DNA of 64,000 nucleotides from a virus. The notes beneath the pieces are model-generated. The model had not been told where the DNA came from. It searched no databases and saw nothing but the letters and a program-made list of their open reading frames with translations. Location: the IMG/VR virus record IMGVR_UViG_3300050821_011467, positions 1 through 64,000 of that record; one strand, given 5' to 3'. Positions within the stretch are counted from its first letter, which is position 1, and each line of letters starts with the position of its first letter. This document shows, piece after piece, positions 16,234-61,677 of this stretch. The position numbers were made by a program, and so were the translations under genes.

Positions 16234-16257
16234 GGGGGAAACCTCCTGTTTGGGGAT

Positions 16258-23986: not shown

Positions 23987-25636
23987 TTACTGACGGGAGA
24001 TCGCCGACCGGAGCAGAGTAACCTGCCCGGGGATCTCCTTTGCGCCGCGGACATAGCCACTTTTGGCGCGCAACCGTTCGATTTCATCGGTTGCGTGCAT
24101 TTCTAGAGAACGTAGTTTTTCTTCAAAATCGTCTGGCGGGCTGGCACCCTTGTCCAGTAGATCCATCATCTTGGCGACGGCGCCGAATACCGTAGCCGCG
24201 CCTCTTATTGCATTTGCCAACTCGACCTTGAAACTTTCACCGAGGGTACGGGCGCGGCGTTCGTCTTCGCGGGCCGCGCGCTGGTTCTGTTCCAGAAAGC
24301 CCCGGATATAAGAGCCGACGTAGTTCGCCGACAGATGTTCGAGCGCCGACCTGCCCCTATTATCCTTTTCGAATTGCTCGCACATACGCTTAACGAGGGC
24401 CAGCTGCTCGGTGATCGGAAACCAATGCCGGTCATTCGGGTCGGTCACCAACTCACGGAACCGGCTCAAGCAGTTATGATTGCGGAAGTATGGCACGATG
24501 CGGCTGTCGAGCAGAGGATCGGCCTGAGCCGCTTTGGCGGCTAAAGCAAAAAGTTCGGCCTCCTTTTCTTCAGCGGCTAGGCGACGCTTTTCGCGCAGCT
24601 CATTCTGCATTTTCTCGTGTTCACGTTGATCTTTGTCTTTGGCCGCTTGCTCGCGCTCGCGCTGCTCGCGTGCCACTTGTTCGCGGGTCAGTGCCGCGGC
24701 GGCTTCTTGTTCTTGTCGCTGAGCATCTTCGGCCTTGCGTTTTTGTTCCCGCGCCAATTTATCCTGTTGTCGCCGCTGAGCATCCTGCCAAGCCCATTCG
24801 GCTGCCTCGGCGTCCCGGCGAGCGCGTTCCTGACGTTCGCGTTCTTTCCTCTCCCGCTCTAGGGCTTCGCGTTCCTGGCGCTCGGCTTCCTCTTGCTCGC
24901 GCTTGAGACGCCTCTCTTCAGCTTCACGCACCAGGGTCTCGATACGCAGCCGTTCGGTCTCCTCGATAGCACGTTCTTGCCGCACCTTTTCGGTGACCTG
25001 TTCGATGATCCGCTGATAGCCGCCATCGACCTTGAGCGTGGCGATGGAGCTGCGGATCTCGGTAGCGTCCAAACTGCCGGCGGGCGCGTATTTTAGGATC
25101 AGATCCCGACCGATCCCGTCGCCCTTGAGCAGTGTGCCGCGAGCAACCTCAAACGCCTTCTGGCTGTTGAATAACCTCTCTGCGTCGGATCTCTGGAGAA
25201 TTCTCCAGAGATCCTCCAGGCTCTCAGCCCGCAGCAGAAAGTACGCCACCCTTCGGGTGATGGCGGCGACGCTATCGAGCGAGGCGGCGGAATTGTTGAC
25301 CCGTTGCGTGCCGTTCTCTACGGCCAGCATCAGGATCATCTCGTCGTCGTCGTGGGGGCCGACCTCGAGCCGGATTGTTTTGTAGCCGAGGCGCTTGGCG
25401 GCGTCCTTGCGGTGGTGACCGAAGCAGATTTCGTAACTATTCGGTTCCTTTGCCGGGCGCGCCGGCATGGCATGCCAAAGGCCGGTATCGGCGGGAACTC
25501 CGGTTTCCGAAAAGGCTTGAAGCGAAGCCATGAGCCGCGCGATCTGCGCTTCGTCTATCGGGTAGTTCGTGAAATCGCGATAGGGGTTGTCGAGCACCCG
25601 ATCGATATCGGCCTCGACAATGACAGTTTTGGGCAT
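23987..25636 (-). CDS. ParB/Srx-like N-terminal domain protein with long coiled coil
   Basis: NPYR...I..LMASL...EICFGHHRKDAAKRLG...LAVEN.TQR (GxxR motif); Glu/Arg-rich coiled coil; AAGGAGG RBS. Confidence 0.75.
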   Translation of the reverse strand: MPKTVIVEADIDRVLDNPYRDFTNYPIDEAQIARLMASLQAFSETGVPADTGLWHAMPARPAKEPNSYEICFGHHRKDAAKRLGYKTIRLEVGPHDDDEMILMLAVENGTQRVNNSAASLDSVAAITRRVAYFLLRAESLEDLWRILQRSDAERLFNSQKAFEVARGTLLKGDGIGRDLILKYAPAGSLDATEIRSSIATLKVDGGYQRIIEQVTEKVRQERAIEETERLRIETLVREAEERRLKREQEEAERQEREALERERKERERQERARRDAEAAEWAWQDAQRRQQDKLAREQKRKAEDAQRQEQEAAAALTREQVAREQREREQAAKDKDQREHEKMQNELREKRRLAAEEKEAELFALAAKAAQADPLLDSRIVPYFRNHNCLSRFRELVTDPNDRHWFPITEQLALVKRMCEQFEKDNRGRSALEHLSANYVGSYIRGFLEQNQRAAREDERRARTLGESFKVELANAIRGAATVFGAVAKMMDLLDKGASPPDDFEEKLRSLEMHATDEIERLRAKSGYVRGAKEIPGQVTLLRSAISRQ

Positions 25637-25756
25637 ATTTTGCCTCCTTGATCTATAAAGCTGCTCCGGCAAAACAGCATGAGCGTTTATAGTGATGGCA
25701 CTCTGTTATTTCAGATTTGGCTCGTCAAGCCGGTTTCTGCGGTTTACGCAAAATAA

Positions 25757-33001: not shown

Positions 33002-33100
33002 GGCCGATTTGCCGGCCGCTGAGTGGCCTTGGCACCGGTGGTCGTGTGGGGGTTCCCCGTCCGGGCGAGAAACGCGCCCCACGGGCTCCGTAGGGGTTTC

Positions 33101-33655
33101 GAGCGAGCCATGAAGGTCGAGAGCACCATTTGAGGAGAGCGAGCCACTACAAGCGAGAGCACCAGAACGTCGGAGCGATCCACATTCCGCGAGAGCACCA
33201 AAGATCGAGAGCGAGCGCGAGCCACTGAGTGAGAGAGTACCAAAGGCGTTGAGCGAGCCAAGGTCAATGAGAGCACCACATTCGGCGAGCGAGCCAGAAT
33301 TGCTGAGAGCGCCATAATCGAGGAGCGAGCCACACCGCGGGAGAGCACCAAAAAGGCCGAGCGAGCCACGTTTGGTGAGAGCACCACAGAGGACGAGCGA
33401 GCCAGGAGGTCCGAGAGTACCAGGGGCCCAGAGCGAGCCAAAACGGAGGAGAGCACCAGGGGGCGTGAGCGAGCCATAACGGCAGAGAGCACCATGGTAA
33501 TTGAGCGAGCCACTGAAGGTGAGAGCACCACTGAAGGAGGAGCGAGCCACGCGCCAGGAGAGCACCACGGAATTTGAGCGAGCCAAAGCGTACGAGAGCA
33601 CCAGTGTCGTAGAGCGAGCCATAACGGCAGAGAGCACCATAAAAGCAGAGCGAGG
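33101..33655 (+). repeat. TIGR-type dual-repeat guide-RNA array, upstream part (15 units of 36 nt)
   Basis: GAGCGAGCCA and GAGAGCACCA alternate, separated by variable 8-nt spacers; only one 6-nt and one 1-nt insertion disturb the period; ends in a partial repeat GAGCGAGG. Confidence 0.9.
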
Positions 33656-33661
33656 AAAAAG

Positions 33662-34459
33662 ATGGCCAACATAGATCTTGAGCCGGTAAGGCGACTGAGT
33701 CGCGATATTCGCCAGGCGGCGCTGGTATTGGGCGACGAAGAAGCCCGCTACCTATGTGATGCTTATTACATCATGCAGGACGACAGAAAGCGGACGTTCG
33801 CGCAGCAACGCACGCTCGGCGAGAACGCCGAGCCCAATCTCGTGATAGGATGGCTGGCCGATCAATCGGCGACACTGGAAACTCAAATCAAGTCGGCATT
33901 GGATGTCTATACCAAAGGCCACGAAATGGGTTCTTGGATGCGGTCGATCTATGGCGTGGGGCCCGTGATCAGCGCCGGCCTGTTGGCGCATATCGACATT
34001 GAGAAATGTCCGACCGTGGGTCACATCTGGCAATTCGCCGGCATTGCCGGGGCTGGTCAAAAGCCCTGGGACAGGGGCACCAAGCGCCCCTTCAACGCCC
34101 AGCTCAAAACTTTATGCTGGAAGGCCGGGCAGTCGTTCATGAAGTTCTCCAATCAGGAGGAGTGCGTTTACGGGCGCCACTATCGAGAGCAAAAAGCCAA
34201 ATACATTGCCAAGAATGATGCTGACGGCTTCCGCGATCGTGCATTAGAACGCGCCCCCAAGGTCGGCAAGACCACAGAAGCCTTTAAGCATTACAGCATC
34301 GGCAAGTTGCCGCCCGGCCATATCGACGCAATGGCTCGGCGCTGGGCTGTAAAGCTGTTCCTCGCGCATCTGCACAGTGAATGGCACCAGCGGCATTTTG
34401 GCAGGCCCGCGCCGCTACCGTATCCGATCGCCGTTCTTGGGCACGCCCATATAATCTAG
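33662..34459 (+). CDS. tasA: TasA-like Nop-domain RNA-binding protein (IS110/Nop related, no nuclease domain)
   Basis: Helical N-terminus, then SIYGVGPVISAGLLAHIDIEKCPTVGHIWQFAG and C-terminal HIDAMARRWAVKLFLAHL, resembling the IS110 C-terminal/Nop fold; no RuvC (DEDD), HNH or catalytic SG motif seen; flanked by the array. Confidence 0.8.
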   Translation: MANIDLEPVRRLSRDIRQAALVLGDEEARYLCDAYYIMQDDRKRTFAQQRTLGENAEPNLVIGWLADQSATLETQIKSALDVYTKGHEMGSWMRSIYGVGPVISAGLLAHIDIEKCPTVGHIWQFAGIAGAGQKPWDRGTKRPFNAQLKTLCWKAGQSFMKFSNQEECVYGRHYREQKAKYIAKNDADGFRDRALERAPKVGKTTEAFKHYSIGKLPPGHIDAMARRWAVKLFLAHLHSEWHQRHFGRPAPLPYPIAVLGHAHII

Positions 34460-34638
34460 CCAAATGGAGAGCACCAAAACGCACGAGCGAGCCACTACAA
34501 CAGAGAGTACCAGGGGGCGTGAGCGAGCCACGCCGCAGGAGAGCACCACGGGATCTGAGCGAGCCAAGGGGTGGGAGAGCACCATTGGTCATGAGCGAGC
34601 CAAGGTTTGAGAGAGCACCAGAAACCCCGAGCGAGCCA
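34458..34638 (+). repeat. TIGR-type array, downstream part (10 repeats at exact 18-nt spacing)
   Basis: Same two repeats alternate from 34467 to 34638; partial AGCCA overlaps the tas stop codon. Confidence 0.9.
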
Positions 34639-34662
34639 GCGCCCTATCGAGAACATGGGGAA

Positions 34663-38911: not shown

Positions 38912-38954
38912 ACGGGCAATTGCAGGCCGCCGCTGCGCTTTGGGGGCGAGGCCG

Positions 38955-40961: not shown

Positions 40962-41188
40962 CGCTTGTCGTAATGGACGTGAATTTGCGGTCGGCGCCGG
41001 GCGCGATCCTGCTCGCGTTGCTTGTGCCGCCACAACTCGCCGAGGCTGACCTTCTCGCCGTCGGGCATCACCACGTCGACTTGGTCGGCATGCTCGGCGA
41101 CAAAGCGGTTTTCATCGGTTGGCTCGGGCAACTGAGCCGGTGGGTCTTGGGCCAGATTTCTTCTCCTTCGTGTTAGAGATATAATCAT
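40958..41188 (-). CDS. Small hypothetical protein convergent with the ART gene
   Basis: Ends PQIHVHYDKR; start uncertain. Confidence 0.45.
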   Translation of the reverse strand: MIISLTRRRRNLAQDPPAQLPEPTDENRFVAEHADQVDVVMPDGEKVSLGELWRHKQREQDRARRRPQIHVHYDKR

Positions 41189-42129
41189 TGCCTGCGAAAA
41201 TTGCGACCGCGCCGCACGGGGCCGAGCGCATCGCGCTGCGCGCCACGGCTGCCTTGATACCCTACGCCCGCAACCCGCGCACCCATTCTGACGATCAGGT
41301 GGCGCAGATCGCCGCTTCGATCAGGGAATTCGGTTTTACCAACCCGGTGCTGGTTGACGGCGCCGGCGGGATCATCGCCGGGCATGGCCGCGTGCTGGCG
41401 GCGCAGCAGCTCGGCCTGGCCGAAGTGCCGACCATCGCGCTGGGCTATCTGACGCCGATACAGCGCCGTGCCTACGTCATTGCCGACAACCAGCTCGCGT
41501 TAAATGCCGGCTGGAACCTTGAGCTGCTGCGCCTCGAGATGCAGGCGCTCGACACCGATCACTTTGACCTGTCGCTGACCGGGTTTGGCGAGGATCAGCT
41601 CGCCGATCTGTTGGCTGGGCGCGATCTGCCTGAATTCACCGGCGAGTTTGAGTGGTACACGCCAGCAGAAATCATCGAACCTGCACGATCCGTCCTCGGT
41701 GGGATCGATCTAGACCCGGCTTCGAGCGAGACGGCACAACGCACAATCCGGGCGAAGCGGTACTACACCCGAGAGGATGACGGGCTGAGCAGGAAGTGGC
41801 GCGGGCGCGTCTGGCTCAATCCTCCGTATGCGGCCAATCTGGTCGGCAAGTTCGTCGCCAAGCTCTGCGAGCATGTTGCTGCGGGTGATGTTAAGGCCGC
41901 AATCATGCTGGTCGACGACAGAACCGATACTAGGTGGTTTCACGCGGCCGCTGTTGCGGCGGAGCGGATCTGCTTTCCTGCAGGTCGCATCCACTTCGTC
42001 CGTCCCGCGGGCGATCCGGGCGGGCCGCTGAACGGCTCGGCGCTGTTCTATTTTGGCGGTGCGCCCGATGCTTTCGAGGATGTCTTTGGCAAGATCGGCT
42101 TGGTGTTATGTCGGACCACTAAACCATGA
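41188..42129 (+). CDS. ParB-like domain fused to phage N6-adenine DNA methyltransferase
   Basis: LIPYARNPRTHS..Q..QIA.SI.EFGF.NP...IIAGHGR; EWYTP...DLDPAS...DGL...W...VWLNPPY. Confidence 0.9.
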   Translation: MPAKIATAPHGAERIALRATAALIPYARNPRTHSDDQVAQIAASIREFGFTNPVLVDGAGGIIAGHGRVLAAQQLGLAEVPTIALGYLTPIQRRAYVIADNQLALNAGWNLELLRLEMQALDTDHFDLSLTGFGEDQLADLLAGRDLPEFTGEFEWYTPAEIIEPARSVLGGIDLDPASSETAQRTIRAKRYYTREDDGLSRKWRGRVWLNPPYAANLVGKFVAKLCEHVAAGDVKAAIMLVDDRTDTRWFHAAAVAAERICFPAGRIHFVRPAGDPGGPLNGSALFYFGGAPDAFEDVFGKIGLVLCRTTKP

Positions 42130-42602
42130 AAAACCGTTTTAAGATCGAGCAAGTCGCCGAGGCGCTGCGCAAGAGTGCCGGCATTCAGGCGGGCGCCGCA
42201 AGAATTCTCGGCTGCACCCGTCAGGCCATCAGTCTATACGTCGCGCGCTATCCGCAATTGGCGCGGGTCGTCGACGACGCGGTAGAATTTAATCTCGACC
42301 TCGCCGAGACCAAGTTGATCGACGCGGTCAACCAGGGTGAGATGACCGCGATCAAATTTTACTTAGAAACCAAGGGTAAGAGCCGCAACTACACCAGGCG
42401 CCATGAAGTCACTGGCGCCAACGGTGGTGCAATCGAGGTGACCGGTGCCCGAGACAGACTCATCGCAACCCTCGACGAAATGGCAGAACGTCTTGCCATC
42501 GGGAATGCCGAGCTTGGATCTATCACCAGCCGAGCGCCTGATTCAGGAGCTAAACCAAACGGAGCGGGCGCAATTACTGAGGAAACAACTCAGCGACATT
42601 GA
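42126..42602 (+). CDS. terS: Terminase small subunit
   Basis: N-terminal HTH, AIKFYL..KG, EVTGANGGAI; directly upstream of the large subunit. Confidence 0.7.
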   Translation: MKNRFKIEQVAEALRKSAGIQAGAARILGCTRQAISLYVARYPQLARVVDDAVEFNLDLAETKLIDAVNQGEMTAIKFYLETKGKSRNYTRRHEVTGANGGAIEVTGARDRLIATLDEMAERLAIGNAELGSITSRAPDSGAKPNGAGAITEETTQRH

Positions 42603-43845
42603 CGCGGCGGGGCTGGTTTATGATTGGCCGTTCTGGGCCCGCCCCTCGCAATTGCCGCCGGCTGACCCCGATTGGGTCTATTTTATGCTCATGGCCGGGC
42701 GCGGAAGCGGCAAAACCCGCAGCGGCGCCGAGTACATTCGAAACGTTAAAAATGTCGCTTCGCCAATTGCCCTGATCGGCGCCACCGCGGCTGACGTCCG
42801 CGACGTCATGGTGCGCGGCCCGGCGGGGTTGCTCTCCATTGCGCCGCCCGGTGACTATCCCGACTACCAGCCGAGCAACCGGCGGGTCGTGTGGAAGAAC
42901 GGCGCCGAGGCGCTGATGTTCTCGGCCGAGGAGCCGGACCGGCTGCGGGGACCGCAGTTTGCAGCAGGTTGGTGCGACGAAATTTCGAGCTGGTCTTATC
43001 CGGACGACACCTGGTCAAACTTCCTGTTTGGGCTGCGCCTCGGCAAAAACCCGCGTGCGGTAATCACCACGACCCCGCGACCGATCAAGCTGGTCCGCGA
43101 GCTGATCGCCGACCCGCAATGCCGCGTCAGCCGGACCTCGAGCTACGCCAACCGCGCTCACCTGGCGCCCGCATTCTTTTCAAAGATCATCGCCCGGTAT
43201 GAGGGGACGAGGCTCGGCCGCCAGGAGATCTATGCCGAGCTCCTCGATGATGTGCCGGGTGCGCTATGGACTCGCGACAACCTCGAACGCGACCGGTTGC
43301 CGTTTGGCACCAAGCTTCCCGAGATGGCGCGCATCGTCATCGGTCTTGATCCCGCAGTCACCAGCGGTGAAGACTCGGACGAGACCGGCATTATCGTTTG
43401 CGCCAAAGATTATCAGGGGCAAGCCTACGTGCTGGCCGACCGCAGCGGGCACTATCAGCCGACCGAGTGGGCGCGCGAGGCCGTCGCGCAGTACCACCAT
43501 CCTGACCGCCCCGCCGACCGCATCATCGCCGAAATCAACAACGGCGGCGAAATGGTCGAGCACACCTTGCGAATGGTCGACCCCGGCGTCCCGGTCAAGA
43601 CGGTGCACGCTTCGCGCGGCAAGGTCATTCGCGCCGAGCCGATATCCGCGCTCTACGAAAAGGGGCGCGTCCATCACGTCGGGTTTTTCCCGCTGCTCGA
43701 AGATTCAATGACGAGTTTCACGGTCGACTACGACCGGTCGGTCAATGGTTCGCCGGATCGAATTGATGCTCTGGTTTGGGCCTTAACCGAGCTGTTGGTC
43801 GAGGACGCGGGTAATGCCTATCTCGAATCCTGGGGAAGGTGGTAG
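42505..43845 (+). CDS. terL: Terminase large subunit
   Basis: Walker A AGRGSGKT; LRGPQF...WCDE; TTTP; nuclease IGLDP...DETG...SPDRIDA. Confidence 0.95.
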   Translation: MPSLDLSPAERLIQELNQTERAQLLRKQLSDIDAAGLVYDWPFWARPSQLPPADPDWVYFMLMAGRGSGKTRSGAEYIRNVKNVASPIALIGATAADVRDVMVRGPAGLLSIAPPGDYPDYQPSNRRVVWKNGAEALMFSAEEPDRLRGPQFAAGWCDEISSWSYPDDTWSNFLFGLRLGKNPRAVITTTPRPIKLVRELIADPQCRVSRTSSYANRAHLAPAFFSKIIARYEGTRLGRQEIYAELLDDVPGALWTRDNLERDRLPFGTKLPEMARIVIGLDPAVTSGEDSDETGIIVCAKDYQGQAYVLADRSGHYQPTEWAREAVAQYHHPDRPADRIIAEINNGGEMVEHTLRMVDPGVPVKTVHASRGKVIRAEPISALYEKGRVHHVGFFPLLEDSMTSFTVDYDRSVNGSPDRIDALVWALTELLVEDAGNAYLESWGRW

Positions 43846-44187: not shown

Positions 44188-45795
44188 ATGCTTACTCCCG
44201 AGCCGATGCGCGTGCGGGTGGCGGCGAGCAGCCGTGATCTAAAGACCGGCGAGATCAGTCACCCATCCGGACCGGTAAGCGACAGTTATCAGAACTTTCT
44301 GGCCAGTATTGGCCAACACACCAACAACCTCTCGGCCGGCAGCACTTATGGGTTTAACCCGCTCAGTCGCGAGCGGATCATGCTCGAGTGGATGTATCGC
44401 AGCAGCTGGGTGTGCGGTGTCGCTGTCGATGCTGTCGCCGACGATATGGTCAAGATGGGCATCGATTTTGGCGGCACGATCCCGCCCGAGGATGCCGATC
44501 AGCTCGAAAAGACGTTGAATACATTGCAGCTTTGGGCTTCGCTTAACGAGCTCATAAAATGGGGGCGCTTATACGGTGGCGCCATTGCCGTCATCGATAT
44601 CGAGGGGCAAGACCCGGCGACGCCATTGCGGGTCGAGACCGTCGGCAAGGGGATGTTCAAGGGGCTGTCGGTCTTTGATCGCTGGATGGTCGAGCCGTCG
44701 CTGAATGATCTGATCACCCAGATGGGCCCGGATCGCGGGTTGCCGAGGTATTATCGCACCCACGCCGACGCCTACAGCATCCCGCAGATGACGGTGCATT
44801 ACAGCCGCATCATTCGTTACGAGGGCATTCCGCTCCCTTACTGGCAGCGGGTGCAGGAAAATCTCTGGGGCATGTCTATTTACGAGCGCCTGTGGGACCG
44901 GCTAACGGCGTTTGACAGCTCGACCCAGGGTGTCGCGCAGCTGGTCTATCGGGCCTATCTGCGCATCGTCAAATTGAAGGATCTGCGCGAAGTCGCTTCG
45001 ATGAGCCAGGAGGCGCAGCGCGGGCTGATGCGCCGGATCGAGCTGATGACCCGGTTTCAATCGAGCGAGGGCATCACCGTGCTCGGCGAAGGCGACGAGT
45101 TCCAATCGATCGCTTACGCCTTTGGCGGGCTCGACAGCGTGCTTCTCCAGTTCGGTCAGCAGTTGTGCGGCGCGCTCCAGATCCCTGGTGTGCGTCTGTT
45201 TGGCCAGTCGCCCGCTGGGCTGAACGCAACCGGCGACTCGGACTGGAGAAACTATTTTGATGGCATTCACCAGCAACAGGAATTGCGCCTGCGCCGCCCG
45301 GTGACCACCGTGCTGCATGTGCTCGCTCAGTCGGACGGGGTCAAATTGCCCGATGAATGGAATTACCAGTTCCGCAACCTGTGGCAGATGACCACGGTCG
45401 AAAAATCCCAGGTCGCCGAGACCAACACCCGCACCATCCTGGCCGCCGACGAGCTCGGCATCCTGCCGCGCAAGACCATCCTCCAGGAGCTGCGCCAGGC
45501 CAGCCGCGAGTCGGGGATCTGGCAGACCATCACCGACGAGCAGATCGAGGCGGCGGATATGCAGCTGCCGCCCGGAATGCCCGGAATGCCCGGAATGCCC
45601 GGAATGCCCGGAATGCCGGGACAGCCGCAAGCCGGCGTGGCGGGGCAGTCTGGGAAAGCTGAGCCGCCGGGCGGGAAACCGCCGGTACCGCTGCCCAAGA
45701 TCCCTGATCTGCACCTGCACGCGCCCACGGGGCAAACCGCGGTGCTGCACACCCACTATGACGAGCCGCCTGATAAATCCAACGGCGCGGGATGA
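44188..45795 (+). CDS. Portal protein (DUF1073/HI1409 type)
   Basis: MYRSSW....VD..ADDM...WGRLYGG...LFGQSPAGLNATG.SD..NY; position after TerL. Confidence 0.9.
   Translation: MLTPEPMRVRVAASSRDLKTGEISHPSGPVSDSYQNFLASIGQHTNNLSAGSTYGFNPLSRERIMLEWMYRSSWVCGVAVDAVADDMVKMGIDFGGTIPPEDADQLEKTLNTLQLWASLNELIKWGRLYGGAIAVIDIEGQDPATPLRVETVGKGMFKGLSVFDRWMVEPSLNDLITQMGPDRGLPRYYRTHADAYSIPQMTVHYSRIIRYEGIPLPYWQRVQENLWGMSIYERLWDRLTAFDSSTQGVAQLVYRAYLRIVKLKDLREVASMSQEAQRGLMRRIELMTRFQSSEGITVLGEGDEFQSIAYAFGGLDSVLLQFGQQLCGALQIPGVRLFGQSPAGLNATGDSDWRNYFDGIHQQQELRLRRPVTTVLHVLAQSDGVKLPDEWNYQFRNLWQMTTVEKSQVAETNTRTILAADELGILPRKTILQELRQASRESGIWQTITDEQIEAADMQLPPGMPGMPGMPGMPGMPGQPQAGVAGQSGKAEPPGGKPPVPLPKIPDLHLHAPTGQTAVLHTHYDEPPDKSNGAG
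45571..45615 (+). repeat. (CCCGGAATG)5 tandem repeat encoding (PGM)5
   Basis: Direct observation in the portal C-terminal tail. Confidence 0.9.
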
Positions 45796-47256: not shown

Positions 47257-47413
47257 GTGAGGCGAGAAGCCAGCGAGTCCTGCCCAAGGCGCGCCGGTTA
47301 ACTCATCCGCTTCCTCGATGGTCCCGGCGAGGTCGCGATCCCCGATCCTGCCATCGTCAACCCTTGTTGGGCCGCCTCGCTGACGATCCTAAACAATGCG
47401 GCGGGGGTCGCCA

Positions 47414-49015
47414 ATGCAATATCACACGGTCGAAACGATCGGCCCCAAGCGCTCGCGCACGGCGCACGGTTTTATGCTGTGCCAGGACGTGCCGATCGCG
47501 CGTACTGGCATGCAGCTCTATGGCCCCGACGAGACGCCAATCAGAGCCGGTGCCGCTGACGTAGTGCGCATTGAGCGCGATGCCGAAGAAGTCTTTCACC
47601 CGGACTGCATTGCCTCGCTGCAGGGGGTGCCGATTGTCAACGAGCACCCGACTGATGAGTTTGGCGGTCGGGCCGACGTAACTATCGACAACTGGCGCGA
47701 CCTGGCGGTCGGCCATGTTCTCAATCCACGACGCGGATTGGGTGCAGACGACGACGTGCTGATCGCCGATCTGCTGTTTACCGATGCCGACGCTATTGGA
47801 CTGATCAACGCCGGTAAGCGTGAACTCAGTTGCGGCTACGACGCTGAGTACGACGAGCTGGGTCCCGGCCACGGCCGTCAGCGCGCTATCCGCTGCAACC
47901 ACGTAGCCCTCGTCGAGCGCGGGCGCTGCGGCGCGCGTTGCAGCATTGGCGACCACGACCTGGTCGGCATCACTGAATGCCAAATCACCGAACAACCCGA
48001 CGCCACGGAGGACAGGGCGATGCGAAAAGGACTGACCTGGGCCGATCGGATTCGCGCCGCCTTTAAAGCGCGTGACGCCGACGCGCTCGAAAATGTGCTG
48101 GGCGAGGAGCCGGAAGAAGAGCCGGGCAACGGCAATGCCGAGCACCACGTGCATGTCCATCTGCCTGGCGCGCCCGAAACCCCCGCAGGCACGCCGGCGG
48201 CTGAAAAAGGCGACGGTCTGACACCAGCCTCGCCGGCGCCGGCGACGCCCTCGCCGCTCGACCAGCCGGCTGAGGCGGCACCTGAGGAGGCTCCGGCTAA
48301 TGGCGGCGATCTCTCGCAGGCGTTTCAGCAGCACGTGCAGCAAAACAACGCCGAGCACGAGGAGCTGTGGAACGCGATCGAAAGCCTGGCGGGTGCGGGC
48401 AATGGCGCCGAGGCACCGACCGCCGGTAACGGTGATGCAGCCCGCCCACACCGTGATGCGCGCCGGCTGCGCGACAGTGTTCGAGCAAAGGACGAGCTCG
48501 GCGAGGCGCCGCCGGTCGAGGAGGGCACCACGGTGCTTTCCGGGTTTGAGATGGAGGCGCCACCGGGCACTCAGCAAAACGACATGCGGCGAGCTCGCGA
48601 CTCGGCGCTGTTTGTCGACAGCTTTAACGACACGGTAGCGCTGGCCGAAATCATCGTGCCGGGCATCCGGCTGCCGACCTATGACCAGGCGGCCCCACCC
48701 AAAAAGACCTTTGATGCGATCTGCGCGTTTCGCGCCCAGGTGCTCGACACAGCATGGCGCGAGCCCGAGACCCGCGAGATCATCGAAGAGATCACCGGGG
48801 GCCGTTTTAGCAGCGCCAAAAATATGACGTGCGACAGTGTCCGCGTGCTGTTCCGCGCCGTCGGCAATGCCAAAGCTCGGGCCAATAAAGCGGCGATGGG
48901 CGGTGCCGCACGAGCCTTTGCGGGCGACGTCCAAACCGGTGGCGAGATCCGCTCCCCCAAAGACCTGCAGGCGGTGCTCAACGCGCACTACGCCGCGCAG
49001 CGCCACCACACCTAA
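47414..49015 (+). CDS. Prohead protease/scaffold (DUF2213)
   Basis: VPIARTG...EVF...SL.G.P...HP...RELSCGY...NHVALV.RGRCG. Confidence 0.9.
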   Translation: MQYHTVETIGPKRSRTAHGFMLCQDVPIARTGMQLYGPDETPIRAGAADVVRIERDAEEVFHPDCIASLQGVPIVNEHPTDEFGGRADVTIDNWRDLAVGHVLNPRRGLGADDDVLIADLLFTDADAIGLINAGKRELSCGYDAEYDELGPGHGRQRAIRCNHVALVERGRCGARCSIGDHDLVGITECQITEQPDATEDRAMRKGLTWADRIRAAFKARDADALENVLGEEPEEEPGNGNAEHHVHVHLPGAPETPAGTPAAEKGDGLTPASPAPATPSPLDQPAEAAPEEAPANGGDLSQAFQQHVQQNNAEHEELWNAIESLAGAGNGAEAPTAGNGDAARPHRDARRLRDSVRAKDELGEAPPVEEGTTVLSGFEMEAPPGTQQNDMRRARDSALFVDSFNDTVALAEIIVPGIRLPTYDQAAPPKKTFDAICAFRAQVLDTAWREPETREIIEEITGGRFSSAKNMTCDSVRVLFRAVGNAKARANKAAMGGAARAFAGDVQTGGEIRSPKDLQAVLNAHYAAQRHHT

Positions 49016-49603: not shown

Positions 49604-50800
49604 ATGCCTTTTGACGGCTTGCTAACCAGCACGGCGCTGAGCGCTCCGGCGATCATTCATCGCGGGCGGTGGCGCACCGCCGACGATCTGTCGCTGCTTG
49701 ATCAGCGGCGTCCCACCTACGATGCCGGGGGCAACCATCTCGGCCGCCAGTACGACCGGCCCTACCGGTCGCATGACGGCAAGTACTACGACAGCTCGGG
49801 CGCGTTCTATCACGGCGAGCTGGTCCGCCTCGACCAGGACCTGCACTTGCCGCTGGCCTCGATCAGCTGGGGGCGCGACATCGATCTGCGTCAGGACGTG
49901 ACGATTGCCGACGAGGCGACCGCGTGGACCCTGTCGACCTTTGCCTCGCCTGGCGGGCTTGGGATGGGCAACGCGATCACCGGCGGCAAAGCGTGGATCG
50001 GCAAGAGCACCACCGAAATCGCCGGTGTCAGCGTCGATATCGCGCAGATCACCAAGCCGTTGCGGCCCTGGGCGATCGAATTGAAGTACACGGTTCTCGA
50101 ACTCGAGAGCGCCCTAAAAATGGGTCGCCCGATCGATCAACAAAAATACCAGGGCATGAAGCTCAAACACCAGATGGACATCGATGCCATGGTGTATGTG
50201 GGCGACACCGATACTGGGGATAAGGGCCTTGTTAACTTGCCTGTTGCTGCACCCGGTGTTCCTGGTGTTGGTACTATTACAAATCTACCAGCGGGGGCTG
50301 GCGGCAGCACGGGCTGGTCGGTCGGCGGCACCACCGGCAAAACCCCCGCCGAAATCCTCGCCGACGTCAACTTTGCGCTAAACTTGACATGGAGCAATTC
50401 GGCGTGGGCTGTGGTGCCGAACCGCCTCCTATTGCCCACAGCGCAATATGGCTACATCGCGACCCAGCTGGTGTCGACCGCTGGCACAACCTCGATCCTC
50501 CGCTATGTCGAAGAAAATAACCTGCTGTCGCGCAGTGGCGCCGGGCGGTTAGAGATTTTCCCGTGCAAATGGTGCAATGGCGCTGGTGCAGGCGGCACGA
50601 TCGGCACTCCAGCGCCGGGCGCGAATGACCGCATGGTGGTCTACACCAAGGACAAGGAATACATCCGCTATCCGATGACGTTACTTGGTCGGACGCCAAT
50701 ACAGTATGACGCAATTTGGCAAAAATCTACATATTATGGCCGGCTTGGAGTAGTAGAGGTGGTTTACCCCTCAACTATCGCTTACTTTGATAAACTCTAA
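49604..50800 (+). CDS. Major capsid protein (DUF2184)
   Basis: DSSGAF..GEL.RLD..L..PL....WGRDI.LR.DV...GRPID.QK...YVGD. Confidence 0.9.
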   Translation: MPFDGLLTSTALSAPAIIHRGRWRTADDLSLLDQRRPTYDAGGNHLGRQYDRPYRSHDGKYYDSSGAFYHGELVRLDQDLHLPLASISWGRDIDLRQDVTIADEATAWTLSTFASPGGLGMGNAITGGKAWIGKSTTEIAGVSVDIAQITKPLRPWAIELKYTVLELESALKMGRPIDQQKYQGMKLKHQMDIDAMVYVGDTDTGDKGLVNLPVAAPGVPGVGTITNLPAGAGGSTGWSVGGTTGKTPAEILADVNFALNLTWSNSAWAVVPNRLLLPTAQYGYIATQLVSTAGTTSILRYVEENNLLSRSGAGRLEIFPCKWCNGAGAGGTIGTPAPGANDRMVVYTKDKEYIRYPMTLLGRTPIQYDAIWQKSTYYGRLGVVEVVYPSTIAYFDKL

Positions 50801-54264: not shown

Positions 54265-55365
54265 ATGCCGCGTGGGTACTCGGCCGACTCCTTCGGGGGC
54301 CGGCCTTTTTTAACCCGCCGCTCGCTGTTGCGGGTTGGTGCGCTCTCGCCGCTGATCATTCCGGGCCGGAGCCTTGCGCGAGTTGGCGGGGCGCCCGCGG
54401 TGGTGACTGGGCCGTGTGGTAGCCCGACCCCGGTCTTTACCTCCAACGCAACCGAGATAATCGGGCCGGGCTGCTATGCTTTGCAGAATGATATTACCGA
54501 CATTCCCGCATTATCCACCATGGGTGGGCTGACGATATTGGGCAATGGGCACTCGGTGACCCCGCCGCCCGGCAACTTTTTTAAAATTGGTTTTGGATTA
54601 AATGCATTTGTACACACCATTCGGGATTTGACCGTCACTGCGGATGGCATAGAAATTAACGGCAACGTCAGCACTACACAGACCAGCCCGTGTGTTTATC
54701 TGTACAATGTCACGATGAACGCCACGGGTGCTGGCGGAACGGGATCGGTCGGTTCCCTGGTACACATGAGCGGATCAAACATTGTCCTGGAGAAGTGCGC
54801 GATCAACACGTGGGCAAGCGGAGGGACCACTGGCTACGATGACGGCGTGATATTAAGCCCGTTTTCCGGCGTAGGGAATGTGCCGGCGTCGTATGTCACA
54901 TTCGACACTGTAACCTTTGGACCCAATTGGGACGTGGCGATTGAGGGGTTTAGCACTCAGGGAACGGCGGTCTCGCCGCACTGGAACCATGTAACTATCA
55001 AGAATTGCGTAACCACCTTCAGCCCCTTTTCGGTCGCGGGGGCCGACTTTGGCGGATACTACGGAGGCCCTAATTCTGGCGATTTGACTTTTACATTTCA
55101 GAATGGCGTATTTACCGGCAATACCCTGAAAACCGGCGGTTGGTTTTTTGCCAATGCAGCCCACACTAATTATGATCGTGCGGACAGCGATGCTGCAGCC
55201 AACGGGCTTTGGGCCGCAACCGGAAATGCCTTTGGCGCCAACACCTACCTTGCGTTGACCCGCGAGCAGTGCGAGGCACGCGCCAAGCTGTGGGCCGCCA
55301 ATCGCCGCAACCCACCGCCGGGGCCGCCGCCCGAGGTGTGGAACGAGAAAATCATCTGTCCGTGA
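54265..55365 (+). CDS. Tat-signal protein with probable beta-helix (pectin-lyase-like) fold
   Basis: LTRRSLLRVG leader; I.GPGCY.L.NDI...TI.GNGHSV; Asn/Thr/Gly-rich strands. Confidence 0.6.
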   Translation: MPRGYSADSFGGRPFLTRRSLLRVGALSPLIIPGRSLARVGGAPAVVTGPCGSPTPVFTSNATEIIGPGCYALQNDITDIPALSTMGGLTILGNGHSVTPPPGNFFKIGFGLNAFVHTIRDLTVTADGIEINGNVSTTQTSPCVYLYNVTMNATGAGGTGSVGSLVHMSGSNIVLEKCAINTWASGGTTGYDDGVILSPFSGVGNVPASYVTFDTVTFGPNWDVAIEGFSTQGTAVSPHWNHVTIKNCVTTFSPFSVAGADFGGYYGGPNSGDLTFTFQNGVFTGNTLKTGGWFFANAAHTNYDRADSDAAANGLWAATGNAFGANTYLALTREQCEARAKLWAANRRNPPPGPPPEVWNEKIICP

Positions 55366-55994
55366 GCGACCCAAAGCCGCCGCCCGATCGCGGCAGCCTG
55401 ATCGGCGGCACCATCGCCCAGGCACTTGGCTATATGGACAAGCCCTGGAAGGCGCTGGTGCTGATCGTGCTGGTGATCCTCGGCGGGCTTGGCTGGGTCG
55501 CCTATAGCCACCAGGACGAGCTGATCGAGGCGTGGCTTACACCGTCGTCGGTCGAACTAAAGATGGCCGACATTCCCGAGGCGCTGACCAAGCTGGGCGA
55601 GGAGACCAGCGCCGACCTGGTACAGATCTGGGAAGTCGATCTGAGCACCAACAGCCAGCGCTTTATTGCGGCGCGCCGGCATGACGGCGAACGCCCGGTG
55701 ATCCCCTCACCGCGGCGGCTGCCGATCATCGTCACCGTGTCGGACGTGCGGGCGCTGGAGCATATTCTGGACGGCCGCCCGGTGTGCGTGCAGATCACGG
55801 AATTTGGTTCGCCGTTGGCAAGACGACTTGCCGAGCGCGGCATGACGCGCGGGTGCGCCATTCCGATCCCGCCGGGGGGCCAGAAATTTCTCGGCGTGAT
55901 ATATCTCGCATGGACAAAAGCGGTCGATGAAACTGCCGAGAACGTCGCGGTTGGGGCGGCGCGCGAGATTGCCGCACAGCTGGTTAGCCGCTAG
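55362..55994 (+). CDS. Single-TM + GAF-like protein; T4 gpT-like holin candidate
   Basis: One N-terminal TM, then a soluble domain with two Cys and CAIPIPP....LGVIYL, the architecture of T4-type holins. Confidence 0.5.
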   Translation: MSDPKPPPDRGSLIGGTIAQALGYMDKPWKALVLIVLVILGGLGWVAYSHQDELIEAWLTPSSVELKMADIPEALTKLGEETSADLVQIWEVDLSTNSQRFIAARRHDGERPVIPSPRRLPIIVTVSDVRALEHILDGRPVCVQITEFGSPLARRLAERGMTRGCAIPIPPGGQKFLGVIYLAWTKAVDETAENVAVGAAREIAAQLVSR

Positions 55995-56024: not shown

Positions 56025-56040
56025 TGTTTCACGTGAAACA
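56025..56040. promoter_or_regulatory. parS: parS site 1
   Basis: Perfect TGTTTCACGTGAAACA. Confidence 0.9.
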
Positions 56041-56066
56041 ATCGCGTCAACTGAGCGGGGTGCCCG

Positions 56067-56342
56067 ATGGCCAAGATCATCCAATCCCCGCGAAACCCTG
56101 ACCCGCCGCCCAAGATCCAGGAGCCCGACGGCGAGCCCACAAACGATGATTGGCGGGATCACGATTATCCCGATCCCGACTATGTCGATGACCTCGAGGT
56201 CGAGGTTGCCGAGCTGATCACTCAGCTAAAAACCGAGATCGGTTTGCGCTACTGCTCGTTTCCGCTGCGGTTGCAAATCGAGAAGATCGAGGTCTTGATC
56301 CTGGATCGATCGCGGGACCGTGCCGACCGATGTTTCACGTGA
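56067..56342 (+). CDS. Acidic hypothetical protein between two parS sites
   Basis: ORF whose stop codon lies inside parS site 2. Confidence 0.5.
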   Translation: MAKIIQSPRNPDPPPKIQEPDGEPTNDDWRDHDYPDPDYVDDLEVEVAELITQLKTEIGLRYCSFPLRLQIEKIEVLILDRSRDRADRCFT

Positions 56343-56346
56343 AACA
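56331..56346. promoter_or_regulatory. parS: parS site 2
   Basis: Perfect TGTTTCACGTGAAACA. Confidence 0.9.
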
Positions 56347-56355
56347 TTTCGCCTG

Positions 56356-56856
56356 ATGGACCCCGAGGACATCGAGAAGGCCATCCGGCGGCTGGCGTCG
56401 CGCCAGCTGCTGATCGGCATACCGGCGGACCACGATGCGCGGCCCGGCGACCCGATTGGCAATGCTTCGCTTGGCTATATCCACGAGACCGGTTCCCCCG
56501 CGCGCAACATTCCGGCGCGCCCGCACCTCGTTCCGGGCGTCGAGCAGGCGCTGCCGGCGATCACCAAGCGGCTCGAAGAGGCGGCCCGTGCGGCACTCGA
56601 GGGCAACATCGCCGGTGTCGACCAGGGCTTTGGGCGCGCTGGGGTCGAAGCCGTCAACTCGGTGCGCGCGGTCATCCAGGCGGGTATCCCGCCGCCACTG
56701 GCGCCCGCGACCGTGGCGGCACGCCGTCGGCGCACGCCGGGCTCGAGCTATCGCCGGCAGGCAACGACCGCGGCCGACGTGACACCGCTCATAGATTCCG
56801 GGGACTACATTAAGAATCTGACGTATGTTGTCAGAGATCGCAGCCGACAGGGCTGA
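56356..56856 (+). CDS. Neck / virion morphogenesis protein
   Basis: LIGIP....R.....NA.LGYIHE.GSP..NIPARP.L.PG...PLIDSG. Confidence 0.8.
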   Translation: MDPEDIEKAIRRLASRQLLIGIPADHDARPGDPIGNASLGYIHETGSPARNIPARPHLVPGVEQALPAITKRLEEAARAALEGNIAGVDQGFGRAGVEAVNSVRAVIQAGIPPPLAPATVAARRRRTPGSSYRRQATTAADVTPLIDSGDYIKNLTYVVRDRSRQG

Positions 56857-56936
56857 CGATCTCCCTAGTACTCCCTAGACTTGGGCATCCCGGCTTGCCC
56901 CCCCCCGGAGGCCCGTCCCTTTTGCGGGAGCCTGCG

Positions 56937-57380
56937 ATGACCGTAGCGCTGTCCGCTTTCACCGATCTGACCATCGTTTCGATCGAATATGCAGCCAACG
57001 GCCTCGATTGGGCGCGGCTCTACGACAACCACGCCATCGGCTGGCTGGTCGACGAAACCACCCCGATCGTGGCACCCGGAGAATTGAAGCCGGTGACAAC
57101 CGGAACGCACGAGCCGTTTCCGATCATCCTCGGCTCGCTGCCAGTCCCGGCGCCGGTCACTGCGCCAATCCAATCGCCGCAATGGTGCAAATTTATCAAT
57201 CCCGCGCTGCTTATCGCCGATGGGGCGCGGTTTAGAAACCTCTGGGACTTCTTGACCTGGCTGGCGACCAACAACGGCGCGCACCGTCTTCTGGAGTCGC
57301 AGTTTATCGTTGAGCCCGTCCTGATCGACGAATTTGCCAGCTGGGCGAGCACGCACACCGACCTGGTCTATCGACCATAA
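56937..57380 (+). CDS. Hypothetical protein, paralog A
   Basis: Shares WARLYDN, SPQW and TWLATNNGAHR with the next gene. Confidence 0.7.
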   Translation: MTVALSAFTDLTIVSIEYAANGLDWARLYDNHAIGWLVDETTPIVAPGELKPVTTGTHEPFPIILGSLPVPAPVTAPIQSPQWCKFINPALLIADGARFRNLWDFLTWLATNNGAHRLLESQFIVEPVLIDEFASWASTHTDLVYRP

Positions 57381-57391
57381 AGGGAAAGCAA

Positions 57392-57799
57392 ATGGCCGTT
57401 ATTCCTACGACCGGGATCATTATTGCGATCGAGTATCCGGGCGACGACGCCAAGCGCTGGGCGCGGTTGTATGACAACCGGGTGCGCGCCTTGATCGTCG
57501 ACGAGACGGGAGCAACCCCAATGAAACCGCAGATCATGGGAGGCTTTCCGCTGGCTGCGACCGACACCGCGCCGATTCTGTCGCCGCAATGGGCGGGGTT
57601 TGACGCGCCCGCGGTCGTCGTCGAGAATTTGTGGCGCGGCACCGTCTCCGACTTTTTTACCTGGCTGGCGACCAACAATGGCGCGCACCGCCCATTGCAG
57701 GCGCGCTTTGTCATCGAGGCGGAACTGGTCAACAGCTTTGCCATCTGGGCAAACCTGCACCCCGAGCTGGTGTTTGACGGCGAGCCGCCGGCGCCCTGA
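57392..57799 (+). CDS. Hypothetical protein, paralog B
   Basis: Tandem paralog of 56937-57380. Confidence 0.7.
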   Translation: MAVIPTTGIIIAIEYPGDDAKRWARLYDNRVRALIVDETGATPMKPQIMGGFPLAATDTAPILSPQWAGFDAPAVVVENLWRGTVSDFFTWLATNNGAHRPLQARFVIEAELVNSFAIWANLHPELVFDGEPPAP

Positions 57800-57990
57800 T
57801 GCGTTGCCCGCGCTGCGCCAACAGCTCGACCCCCGGCTGGATCGTGATGACGGTTCAGCGAGCAAGCGGCATCTATCGGATCTACGAGCCATGCTCGGAG
57901 TGCATCGGGGGTGTTGCAAGCTGTTGCGATACGGCGGGCTCGGCGCAACCCGAGCCGAGTGTTTCACGTGAAACACCGCCGCGGAAGTGA
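57799..57990 (+). CDS. Small Zn-finger protein containing parS site 3
   Basis: CPRC...PCSECIGG..SCCD. Confidence 0.6.
   Translation: MRCPRCANSSTPGWIVMTVQRASGIYRIYEPCSECIGGVASCCDTAGSAQPEPSVSRETPPRK
57960..57975. promoter_or_regulatory. parS: parS site 3
   Basis: Perfect TGTTTCACGTGAAACA. Confidence 0.9.
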
Positions 57991-57996
57991 GGCCAA

Positions 57997-58380
57997 ATGC
58001 CTACCCTCGACGTAAGCGACGTCGTCGTCTGCGAAGAATTCGCGGACAGATTCGATGTCATCAGAAGGCCCGAGGGGATCAGCCAGAGCGGGCGCTCGAC
58101 GGTCAGTCAGGTCACCGTACCCGGTCTCTACGGCACGATCTACGCGACTGGCGACAATTCGTTGACCCGGGTTGCCGACTTTGAGCACGGGCGCAAAACG
58201 CTGACGATTTGCACCAAGTATCGGCTGCAGCAGGCGGCACCCGGCTATCAGCCGGATCTCGTGCTCTACCGCGGCAATCAATTCGTCGTTACCAACGTCA
58301 AAGATTGGTCGCCCTACGGCGCCGGCTTTATCGAGGCCGAGTGCTCCTCGATTCTGGCGATCGAAGCGCCGCCGCAATAA
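57997..58380 (+). CDS. Head-tail adaptor / head closure protein
   Basis: MP.LDVSDV....F.D.F.VIRR...D.V.YRG..F.V..V.D.S.YGAGF..A.C. Confidence 0.8.
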   Translation: MPTLDVSDVVVCEEFADRFDVIRRPEGISQSGRSTVSQVTVPGLYGTIYATGDNSLTRVADFEHGRKTLTICTKYRLQQAAPGYQPDLVLYRGNQFVVTNVKDWSPYGAGFIEAECSSILAIEAPPQ

Positions 58381-59296: not shown

Positions 59297-59959
59297 ATGA
59301 TTCCCAATCAGGCGCCTGATTCAAGCGTAGCGGGCTATCTCCAACCAGGCCGCACCGACGATTTCGCGCTCGACCAGCCGCCGGGGCTGGATCAGGGCGT
59401 CTTCGAGCTGCCCAATCTGGAGGGGCCGCTCCTCGACGATTATCTGCAGCAATTTGTAGCGGGTATCTCTGGGCTCGACGGGACCCTGGTTCGGCCCCGC
59501 TGGCAGCCGGAACCGCCGAATATCCCCGACTTTGGGACGACATGGGCGTCGTTGGGAATTATGCGTCGACGCTCGCTCGGCTTTGTCGGCGCCACACTGC
59601 ACGACCCGGCCGGCAATGGTCACAGCATCATGCTGCGGCATGAGCAACTCGAAATCCTGATTTCGTTCTACGGCCCGCAGTGCGACGAGGCTGCGGGCAA
59701 TCTGCACGACGGGCTGATGCTCGAGCAAAACCGCATCGTCTTGCGGTCGATGAACATGGGGCTGGTCGAGATCACCGACGGCATCAGCAACCCCGAGCTG
59801 ATCAAGGAGCGCTGGCTGGACCGCGTCGACAAGACGCTGTTTATCAACCGCTGCATCGCTCGCGAATATCCGGTGCTCAATCAGTTGACGGCGAGCGGCA
59901 CCGTCATCCCCGACCCGGGCGGCGGCTACCAGGCGCCGTTCACCGTCAACCCGCCTTAA
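59297..59959 (+). CDS. Tail terminator / neck protein
   Basis: GISGL.G.LVRPRWQP.PP..P...W...RHE.LE.L.SFYGP...R.D. Confidence 0.85.
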   Translation: MIPNQAPDSSVAGYLQPGRTDDFALDQPPGLDQGVFELPNLEGPLLDDYLQQFVAGISGLDGTLVRPRWQPEPPNIPDFGTTWASLGIMRRRSLGFVGATLHDPAGNGHSIMLRHEQLEILISFYGPQCDEAAGNLHDGLMLEQNRIVLRSMNMGLVEITDGISNPELIKERWLDRVDKTLFINRCIAREYPVLNQLTASGTVIPDPGGGYQAPFTVNPP

Positions 59960-60146
59960 TCCACACCGCCAACGCCTGCAGATCGTCGGCGCTGAAGTCG
60001 CCGTCAAGACAGATCGTCGTGGTGCCGGGAACCCACAGAAGATAGGGCACTCCTAAGGAAACCCCGCCGTCAACGGCGATCTCGATCCCGCGTGCAATCA
60101 GATGGGCGCGGGCCGCCGCTCGCGCGCTTTCATCAATATCAGTCAT
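59946..60146 (-). CDS. Small hypothetical protein, antisense insertion
   Basis: LDGDFSADDLQALAVW; fills the gap before the sheath gene. Confidence 0.5.
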   Translation of the reverse strand: MTDIDESARAAARAHLIARGIEIAVDGGVSLGVPYLLWVPGTTTICLDGDFSADDLQALAVWIKAG

Positions 60147-60159
60147 GGAGACTTTATAC

Positions 60160-61677
60160 ATGCTGAGCACCGGCTTGTCGGTCAGCCGACTCGTGTCCGT
60201 TTCCGTCTCGTTGACAACACCGGCGATCACCGCGCCGGCGATCAACGCGCTGCTGATCTTGGGCAGCAGCAATGTGATCGGCTCGGCCGAGCGCATGCGA
60301 GCCTATGGCTCCATCTCGGATGTCGGGGCCGACTTTCTGACGAGCTCGCCCGAGTTCCAATCGGCGGATATGTGGTTTAGTCAGGCGCCGTCGCCCGAGG
60401 TCGTCTACATCGGGCGCTGGTTTAAGACACCCGCGGCAGGCCAACTGGTCGGCCGTCCGCTGACCGGCACCGAGCAGACGATCGCCACCTGGAACGCGAT
60501 CGTCGCCGGCGGATTCTCGGTGACGATCGACGCGTTGCCGATCATCCATGTCACCGGGCTGACCTTTGCCGCGGCGGGCAATCTGAACGCGGTGGCCGCG
60601 GCGATCCAGGCTAATGCCAGCATCACCGGTAAAGCGACGGTGGTTTGGGACAGCGCAAACGCGCGCTTTGTAATGACCAGCGTCACCACCGGCATCGCCT
60701 CGGCGGTGTCGTTTCTAACCGCACCGACCGCCGGCACCGACATTTCCGCGATGCTCGGCATGACGGCGGCCGACGCTGCGAGCGGCGCTTTCTCGGGCCC
60801 CGGGGTGGCGACCGAGAGCGCGCTGACGGCGCTGACCGTCATCGATGGGTTGTTCTCGACGCAGTTCTACGGCGTGGTGTGCCCGGAGGGGGTGGCGGCT
60901 GATCACCTGGCTCTCGCCAATTATTGCGAGGCCGCCGATCCGCCGCACTACTACGGGGTGACGACCGGCGATCCGCTGACGCTGACGGCCGAGCCACCGA
61001 GCACGCCGGGCACGCCGGGCAGCCTCGCCAACCAGCTCGCCGCACTCGGCTACAACCACACCGCGGTGCAGTTCTCGACCAGCAACCCCTATGCGATCTC
61101 GAGCTATCTGGCGCGCATCCTGACCACCGCTTGGACGGGGTCCAATACGACGATCGACCTGATGTACAAGCGCGAGCCGGGGGTCGCACCCGAGCAGCTC
61201 AACGCCACCCAGGCCAATAGACTGGCCGACAAGAGCTGCAACGTCTATGCCGCCTATGCCAATGGTGCGACGATGATCCAGCACGGTGTGTCGTGCTCCG
61301 GGGTCTACACCGACACGATCGTCGGCGCCGACGCTATGGCCGGCGATGTCCAGGCCGCGATCTTTAATACAATGTACACCTCGGCGACCAAGGTGCCCCA
61401 GACGGATGCCGGCATGAGCCTCTTGTTCACTGCCGCGACGTCAATCTGCAACCAATACGCCCGCAACGGCTACATCGGCGACGGGATATGGACCTCGCAG
61501 GGATTTGGCACGCTGAACGCGGGCGATCATCTGCCCGGCTTCTATGTCTTTGCGCCGTCGATCCTGACGCAATCGACCGCTGACCGGGCGGCCCGTAAAG
61601 CGCCCCTGATTCAGATCGCGGCGAAAACTGCGGGAGCGATCGAGTCGGCTGACATCTCCATCTTCGTCAACCAGTAA
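60160..61677 (+). CDS. Tail sheath protein (DUF3383)
   Basis: GL.VSRLV.V.V...ER.R.Y.S...V..DF...SPE...A..WF.Q.PSP...IGRW...KVPQTDAG...AGAI. Confidence 0.9.
   Translation: MLSTGLSVSRLVSVSVSLTTPAITAPAINALLILGSSNVIGSAERMRAYGSISDVGADFLTSSPEFQSADMWFSQAPSPEVVYIGRWFKTPAAGQLVGRPLTGTEQTIATWNAIVAGGFSVTIDALPIIHVTGLTFAAAGNLNAVAAAIQANASITGKATVVWDSANARFVMTSVTTGIASAVSFLTAPTAGTDISAMLGMTAADAASGAFSGPGVATESALTALTVIDGLFSTQFYGVVCPEGVAADHLALANYCEAADPPHYYGVTTGDPLTLTAEPPSTPGTPGSLANQLAALGYNHTAVQFSTSNPYAISSYLARILTTAWTGSNTTIDLMYKREPGVAPEQLNATQANRLADKSCNVYAAYANGATMIQHGVSCSGVYTDTIVGADAMAGDVQAAIFNTMYTSATKVPQTDAGMSLLFTAATSICNQYARNGYIGDGIWTSQGFGTLNAGDHLPGFYVFAPSILTQSTADRAARKAPLIQIAAKTAGAIESADISIFVNQ

Follow-up and report, generated by a model that had tools for sequence, protein, structure and literature searches.

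Why should a phage carry the parS sequence of bacterial chromosomes between the genes for its virion? The question is raised by IMG/VR virus record IMGVR_UViG_3300050821_011467, in which three exact copies of the 16-nt palindrome TGTTTCACGTGAAACA lie at 56025-56040, 56331-56346 and 57960-57975. All three are within the window, which comprises bases 1-64000 of the 74,260-bp record. On chromosomes, ParB bound to CTP loads at parS and then spreads along the neighbouring DNA. A first-pass annotation, made from the letters of the window, had proposed that the phage borrows the partition proteins of its host. We found a fourth exact copy outside the window, and the sites are shown, as far as sequence can tell, to be under selection. 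On balance we lean towards the view that what the phage would gain is inheritance or positioning of its unintegrated DNA through host ParB, possibly together with a damping of its late genes.

Exact copies of parS in the late operon of a complete myovirus

The record is the complete genome of a myovirus (completeness rated 100%, terminal overlap of 97 bp, GC content 62%). The fourth copy of TGTTTCACGTGAAACA was located at 70593-70608 of the genome (L005:10593-10608). All four sites fit the chromosomal-type parS consensus TGTTNCACGTGAAACA exactly, and the published chromosomal consensus is the phage 16-mer itself (PMC10197239, quoting Livny 2007), so that the 16-mer had been rightly recognised as the conserved bacterial chromosomal parS. 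In the window, no additional copy was seen even when up to three mismatches were allowed. Shuffling of the window led us to expect 0.12 matches with three mismatches or fewer, none of 100 shuffles gave three, and the number of exact copies expected from base composition in the 74,260-bp genome was 4.1e-6. It is clear that three perfect 16-mers did not arise by chance, as the annotation had maintained, and the additional copy strengthens the case. The 16-mer is also the commonest palindrome of 10-16 nt in the whole genome. The 40-nt flanks around the four copies are mutually unrelated; the repeated unit is therefore the 16-mer alone. The probability that three of four randomly placed sites would fall within 1.95 kb was 0.008.

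Chromosomal parS sites are usually found near oriC and parAB, which is a matter of location and not a property of the site itself; here they lie between neck and baseplate genes of a virus record. The annotation had placed its three copies at or near gene junctions, and this holds for the fourth as well, since all of them occupy junctions between genes of the late operon, in its neck and baseplate parts, on the + strand. Site 1 is intergenic and precedes by 27 nt the ATG at 56067 of an acidic ORF of 91 aa (56067..56342, +) that is conserved among relatives; upstream of it is a virion-module gene of the phrog_31287 family (55209..55994, +; function unassigned, true start probably internal). Site 2 includes the TGA (56340-56342) at which the 91-aa ORF stops; its end is 10 nt short of the ATG at 56356 of the gene for the Neck1 or tail-completion protein (phrog_222, 56356..56856, +; 166 aa in the public gene call). 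Site 3 forms the final codons of a Cys-rich ORF of 63 aa (57799..57990, +), at its 3' end, 22 nt before the ATG of the phrog_939 head protein gene (57997..58380, +) that follows directly. Site 4 falls within a baseplate-wedge gene, in a 3' tail without homology, and precedes a tail-fibre gene.

Conservation of the sites in related phages

The closest comparison was provided by the record IMGVR_UViG_3300050821_002038 (L127, identical with L231; L150 is a piece of the same), which is 88-93% identical to this phage in DNA and whose contig starts just past site 1. Sites 2 and 3, that is, both sites within the contig, are kept 16/16. At site 2 the adjoining 60-nt flanks are only 67% and 43% identical; those of site 3 are 90% identical upstream and 38% downstream. 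At 55% identity the chance of 16/16 conservation is 7e-5. The sites were taken to be selected because they are far beyond chance and were kept while their flanks diverged. The annotation had also judged it unlikely that the region was misassembled host DNA. We agree, as the phage genome is complete and the relative keeps the sites in the same phage gene context.

In the same contig, an insertion of approximately 690 nt (L231:283-970) lies directly after site 2, and the stretch after site 3 has been replaced. Another relative, L151, has a near-parS, TGTTCCACGTGAAACA (one mismatch), at the same junction as site 3. The 5' end of the phrog_939 gene is duplicated there, with the site 24 nt upstream of the duplicated stub, and an ORF of 91 aa is inserted after the site. 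To judge from these alignments, the neck junctions are insertion hot-spots.

Neck1 homologues were aligned, and 159 related loci (1.74 Mb) were scanned for parS with up to two mismatches. Such sites were found in the closest clade only (Neck1 at least 54% identical) and in the neck region only, with about 0.5 expected. More distant relatives carried 0 to 1 exact or near-exact sites each. In the 69-kb genome G009 (L233), one exact parS follows Neck1 at a distance of approximately 500 nt and has an MFS-like insert beside it; the MFS-like segment itself (L233:11557-11671) is about 600 nt from the site. In L155/L244 the site reads TGTTTCATGTGAAACA and in L152/L243 TGTTCCATGTGAAACA; it lies one gene before the ORF homologous to the 91-aa ORF. 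Two sister contigs differ at position 5 of the site, the very base that separates the TGTTTC and TGTTCC forms of parS. We also considered that the site might serve as a start codon. Its internal GTG could start an ORF in L155; at the sites of the window it is out of frame or soon followed by a stop, and the idea was rejected.

No parS site was found in L230, whose Neck1 is 77% identical, or in the complete genome G011. In L230 an 11/16 remnant is present exactly at the site-2 junction, which indicates that the site evolves in place and does not arrive by insertion. Taken across the clade, the comparisons indicate that parS sites are gained and lost and recur in one region. Additionally, synteny between G011 and this phage extends over the entire structural module. 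G011 has a tyrosine integrase gene (60560-60961) just after its tail-fibre genes, a position that is occupied here by tRNA-Thr(TGT) (12625-12701, -) and ORFs without assigned function. It follows from this integrase that the clade includes temperate phages. An integrase is absent from the present genome (G000, four sites) and from G009 (one site); only G011, with no site, has one.

The annotation had proposed that phage databases be scanned for parS and the result compared with the absence of integrase. The first part of this was fruitful, since an exact parS occurs in at least 119 IMG/VR contigs and, among the matches listed, 34 have two or more exact or near-exact sites; among the same listed matches, none is related to this phage. 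The correlation with integrase was seen only within the clade, in three or four genomes.

Proteins that could read the sites

The complete genome was searched with protein profiles in six frames, with control genomes alongside. No ParA-type ATPase was detected with PF13614 (AAA_31) or PF01656 (CbiA) at E<=1 or at E<=10, and the controls were positive in 14/14 genomes. Similarly, HTH_ParB (PF17762) was absent even at E<=10, and neither tyrosine nor serine recombinases were found, with positive controls in both cases. The statement that the window has no parA is thus true of all 74,260 bp. Because the genome has no ParA, HTH_ParB or integrase, a reader supplied by the host is the simplest explanation, as the annotation had supposed; what it had overlooked are two phage proteins with a ParB N domain. 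A centromere-binding ParB of the phage's own would combine this N domain with an HTH and a dimerisation domain, and both proteins have ParB_N only.

One of the two is a fusion of ParB_N with a Dam methyltransferase (41188..42129, +), encoded beside the terminase gene. Its alignment with canonical ParB is limited to the N domain, an HTH domain is lacking, and on this domain composition it is not a parS reader. Such fusions are a common phage architecture (PMC12704722).

The other is an orphan ParB-like protein of 561 aa (23987..25672, -) with a ParB_N fold. In the AlphaFold model (pLDDT 87.5), ParB_N spans residues 16-125 and is followed by a helical domain, a long coiled coil of approximately 160 residues and a C-terminal helical domain. 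If this protein were a KorB- or Noc-like clamp of the phage's own, it could regulate or organise the late region by itself. In favour of this are the confident model, the structural matches to Noc, ParB and KorB (Z ~13, rmsd 2 Å), the alignment with KorB that reaches residues 17-215 (Z 10.8) and thus extends into the helical domain, and the size of the family, which has about 900 representatives (897). The strong matches to Noc, ParB and KorB are, however, confined to the N domain, and a profile-profile alignment with the canonical ParB of a bacterial genome ends at residue 128. HTH_ParB is missing from the protein at E<=10, and among 50 family members tested ParB_N was present in 36 and PF17762 in 0. 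In addition, the relative G009 has an exact parS yet no homologue of the orphan, nor was a homologue found in any relative searched, and if an unrelated DNA-binding domain read the sites, nothing would account for their exact match to the universal parS. For these reasons the orphan, the only conceivable phage-encoded reader, is an unlikely one, and we consider it improbable that the sites serve a clamp of this kind.

We also looked at a second palindrome, ATCAGGCGCCTGAT, as a possible cognate site of the orphan. It is present in two copies, a number reached in 7 of 100 shuffles, and it was rejected. One may speculate that the orphan contacts the N domains of host ParB.

The probable host

The host is probably a member of the Pseudomonadota, although this is only weakly indicated. 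The portal protein shows approximately 50% identity with its counterparts in Bordetella, Burkholderia and Acinetobacter phages. For Neck1, proteins of Burkholderia prophages match at 45-47% identity, and other homologues were found at 64-77%. An MFS transporter encoded by the phage is nearest to Pseudomonadota clusters, without named relatives. The names of related contigs are of the kind used for soil metagenomes. Searches of GTDB genomes with the portal and Neck1 gave nothing closer than 40-51%. The GC content of 62% and the affinities to Pseudomonadota argue against a spore-former of the Bacillus type. The annotation had brought in Caulobacter with its MipZ and PopZ; nothing in the sequence supports their involvement, given how weakly the host is indicated even as a member of the Pseudomonadota.

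Proposed role of the sites

In the reading that we favour, the four 16-mers would be functional cis-acting loading sites for the chromosomal ParB of the host. From established ParB biology we infer that host ParB-CTP clamps would load at the sites, slide over several kb and assemble into a partition complex over the genome's late half. Host ParA, and SMC, could then hold unintegrated phage genomes on the nucleoid and divide them with it, so that a carrier-state, pseudolysogenic or plasmid-like prophage would reach both daughter cells. In a host that does not sporulate, this would correspond to the use of Spo0J by phi29. There is precedent for the effect, as chromosomal Par proteins together with a single parS stabilise unstable plasmids (PMC7022226). 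As a possible second effect, bound ParB may damp the late genes of a dormant genome, because three of the sites are 10-27 nt upstream of start codons. In Pseudomonas aeruginosa, ParB on the intergenic sites parS3 and parS4 represses downstream genes, and the silencing rises with the level of ParB (PMC7022226).

Several observations weigh against this proposal. Neither a repressor-operator switch nor a plasmid replicon was recognised in the genome, and the dormant episomal state is therefore only putative. The one candidate switch protein found was an XRE-type HTH regulator of 119 aa (18333-18692, -; matches to phrog_8, phrog_4583 and phrog_3). The trait is patchy and hence dispensable, as judged from L230 and G011, which carry no site, and the inverse relation of parS to integrase is a hint drawn from three or four genomes. 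Finally, the KorB alignment of the modelled orphan extends into a helical domain at the place that in ParB is taken by the DNA-binding domain, so that a phage reader keeps a small probability.

A bolder version of the proposal would make this an integrase-less temperate myovirus of a non-sporulating Gram-negative host, kept as an episome by the four borrowed parS sites alone. The same ParB complex, bound shortly ahead of neck and tail genes, would hold the late operon down, so that ParB occupancy would serve inheritance and would also be part of the dormancy switch; taken as a whole we regard this as unlikely.

The main rival explanation is that the sites act as a ParB sponge in host takeover, without any role in inheritance. 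During lytic growth, hundreds of genome copies with four sites each would soak up ParB-CTP and with it SMC loading and division control, so that host segregation and division would stall. Perfect sites of the host type without a phage reader are what one would expect of such a device, the more so as affinity is greatest when sites are perfect and not degenerate; nor was a lysogeny module recognised, and an accessory takeover function may well be dispensable among relatives. For a sponge, however, position should not matter, yet the sites recur at the same neck junctions in relatives. One to four sites per genome is also a small number, and relatives with a single site would titrate little. It seems to us that this explanation is rather unlikely, if stronger than the others. 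More doubtful is pure silencing, in which host ParB would act as a roadblock to late transcription and tie the output of virions to the cell cycle or the state of ParB, with no role in partition. It fits the distances of 27, 10 and 22 nt between the ends of sites 1 to 3 and the following start codons, and the repression downstream of parS3 and parS4 in P. aeruginosa (PMC7022226) shows that ParB can behave in this way. The silencing by chromosomal ParB is generally mild, however, promoter prediction found none at the sites, and in a long co-directional operon a roadblock would also cut the essential tail genes in lytic growth.

The 16-mers might, lastly, have no link to ParB at all and be RNA hairpins, terminators, operators of another regulator or neutral hitch-hikers on inserted cassettes. 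The mosaic breakpoints could be read in this way, since L231 has indels directly next to sites 2 and 3 and G009 has the MFS-like insert beside its site, and each parS can form a small RNA hairpin. The stems are weak and lack a U-tract, though, and no terminator was predicted at the sites, so that a role as hairpin or terminator was rejected. The unrelated flanks argue against a shared cassette, and the 11/16 remnant at the site-2 junction of L230 against anything but evolution in place. Moreover, a match to parS is expected for only one palindrome in 65,536. We therefore consider this possibility very remote.

Other features of the genome

The structural genes follow one another on the + strand, beginning with the large terminase (42445-43845), the portal (44188-45795), a DUF2213 protein (47396-49015) and the major head protein (49604-50800). 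After the neck region described above come the neck terminator (59297-59959), the sheath (60145-61677) and the tape measure (63879-66926), followed by baseplate genes and, reached past the record's start, a tail fibre of 2764 aa (278-8572, +). Between sites 2 and 3 there are two paralogous ORFs in tandem (56895-57380 and 57392-57799, +), of 161 and 135 aa and approximately 44% identical; L230 has one copy and the L155 group two. We also asked whether the GC skew marks the parS cluster as an origin or terminus; its profile was noisy, peaked locally at several places and was dropped as uninformative.

A protein of 673 aa encoded ahead of the packaging genes (38940-40961, +) has a C-terminal ADP-ribosyltransferase domain (PF03496, E 6.5e-15). 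The early region contains the gene for the MFS transporter (26528-27673, -), and a RecT-like annealing protein and an exonuclease are encoded at 14971-17079 (-). An ORF of 388 aa (21203-22369, +) has no match in Pfam, PHROG or NCBIfam. An identity as the actin-like ParM was rejected, as the protein Atlas points to an AcrVA2-like family; there the ORF adjoins AcrVA2-like (anti-CRISPR V-A2) clusters with scores of 0.97, which we regard as a lead only.

The ORF at 33662-34459 (265 aa) encodes a TIGR-Tas RNA-guided endonuclease (NF052498 TIGR_Tas_endo, 207 bits; cut-off 100). It is flanked by two arrays with a period of 36 nt, at 33100-33660 (~15 units) and 34467-34656 (~5 units), in which the unit is GAGCGAGCCA-N8-GAGAGCACCA-N8. 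We had considered these arrays as iterons of the P1 type beside a Rep gene, that is, as a plasmid replicon, and rejected this because the flanked ORF is the TIGR-Tas endonuclease.

Comparison with known systems

The best precedent is the Bacillus phage phi29, which has five parS sites through which the host protein Spo0J brings the genome into the prespore (Meijer et al. 2005, summarised in PMC2731898). Borrowing of the host's Par system, which the annotation had inferred, is accordingly not new in kind, since phi29 already shows host ParB acting through host-type parS on a phage genome. Like phi29, the phage described here carries several host-type parS sites and no parS-reading ParB, with the caveat of the helical domain that follows ParB_N in the 561-aa orphan; exploitation of the host partition protein is what we propose here. 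The differences are considerable. phi29, a podovirus of 19 kb with protein-primed replication, infects a spore-former and is known to profit by entrapment in the forespore, with Spo0A boxes playing a part, whereas the present phage is a 74-kb myovirus with a GC content of 62%, four perfect sites in its late operon, a host that is probably a non-sporulating member of the Pseudomonadota and no visible link to sporulation. In the literature, we found no general description of phage-borne host parS beyond phi29. Should host ParB indeed load at the sites, the trick of phi29 would turn out to be a general phage route into host chromosome segregation and not a curiosity of sporulation. parS would then be a simple sequence marker for carrier-state or episomal phages, which are hard to detect in metagenomes, and the phage would offer a natural test bed for ParB-CTP clamps on a small, heavily transcribed foreign replicon.

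The parS clusters of chromosomal ParABS systems (Livny et al. 2007; PMC7022226) resemble the one described here in the identical 16 bp and in the grouping of several sites in approximately 2 kb; they are located beside parAB and the origin, in contrast to the present sites, which are on a virus between virion genes. Phage N15 has SopAB with four separate inverted-repeat (IR) centromere sites (PMC7205306). Scattered single palindromic centromere sites on a phage are thus common to this genome, N15 and P1 (ParAB-parS), and in N15 and P1 they serve the inheritance of an unintegrated prophage. In N15 and P1 the ParA- and ParB-type proteins are phage-encoded and the centromere sequences are private, whereas this phage encodes neither protein and carries the host's sequence instead. 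Dedrick et al. are said to have described in 2016 actinobacteriophages in which parABS cassettes replace the integrase. A similar alternation of integration and partition may be seen here in three or four genomes, with an integrase in G011, which is without parS, and none in the parS-bearing G000 and G009, although the actinobacteriophages have complete parA-parB-parS cassettes of their own. What is new in the present phage is its type, its probable host phylum and the position of the sites at late-operon junctions, together with a hint that they stand in for integration.

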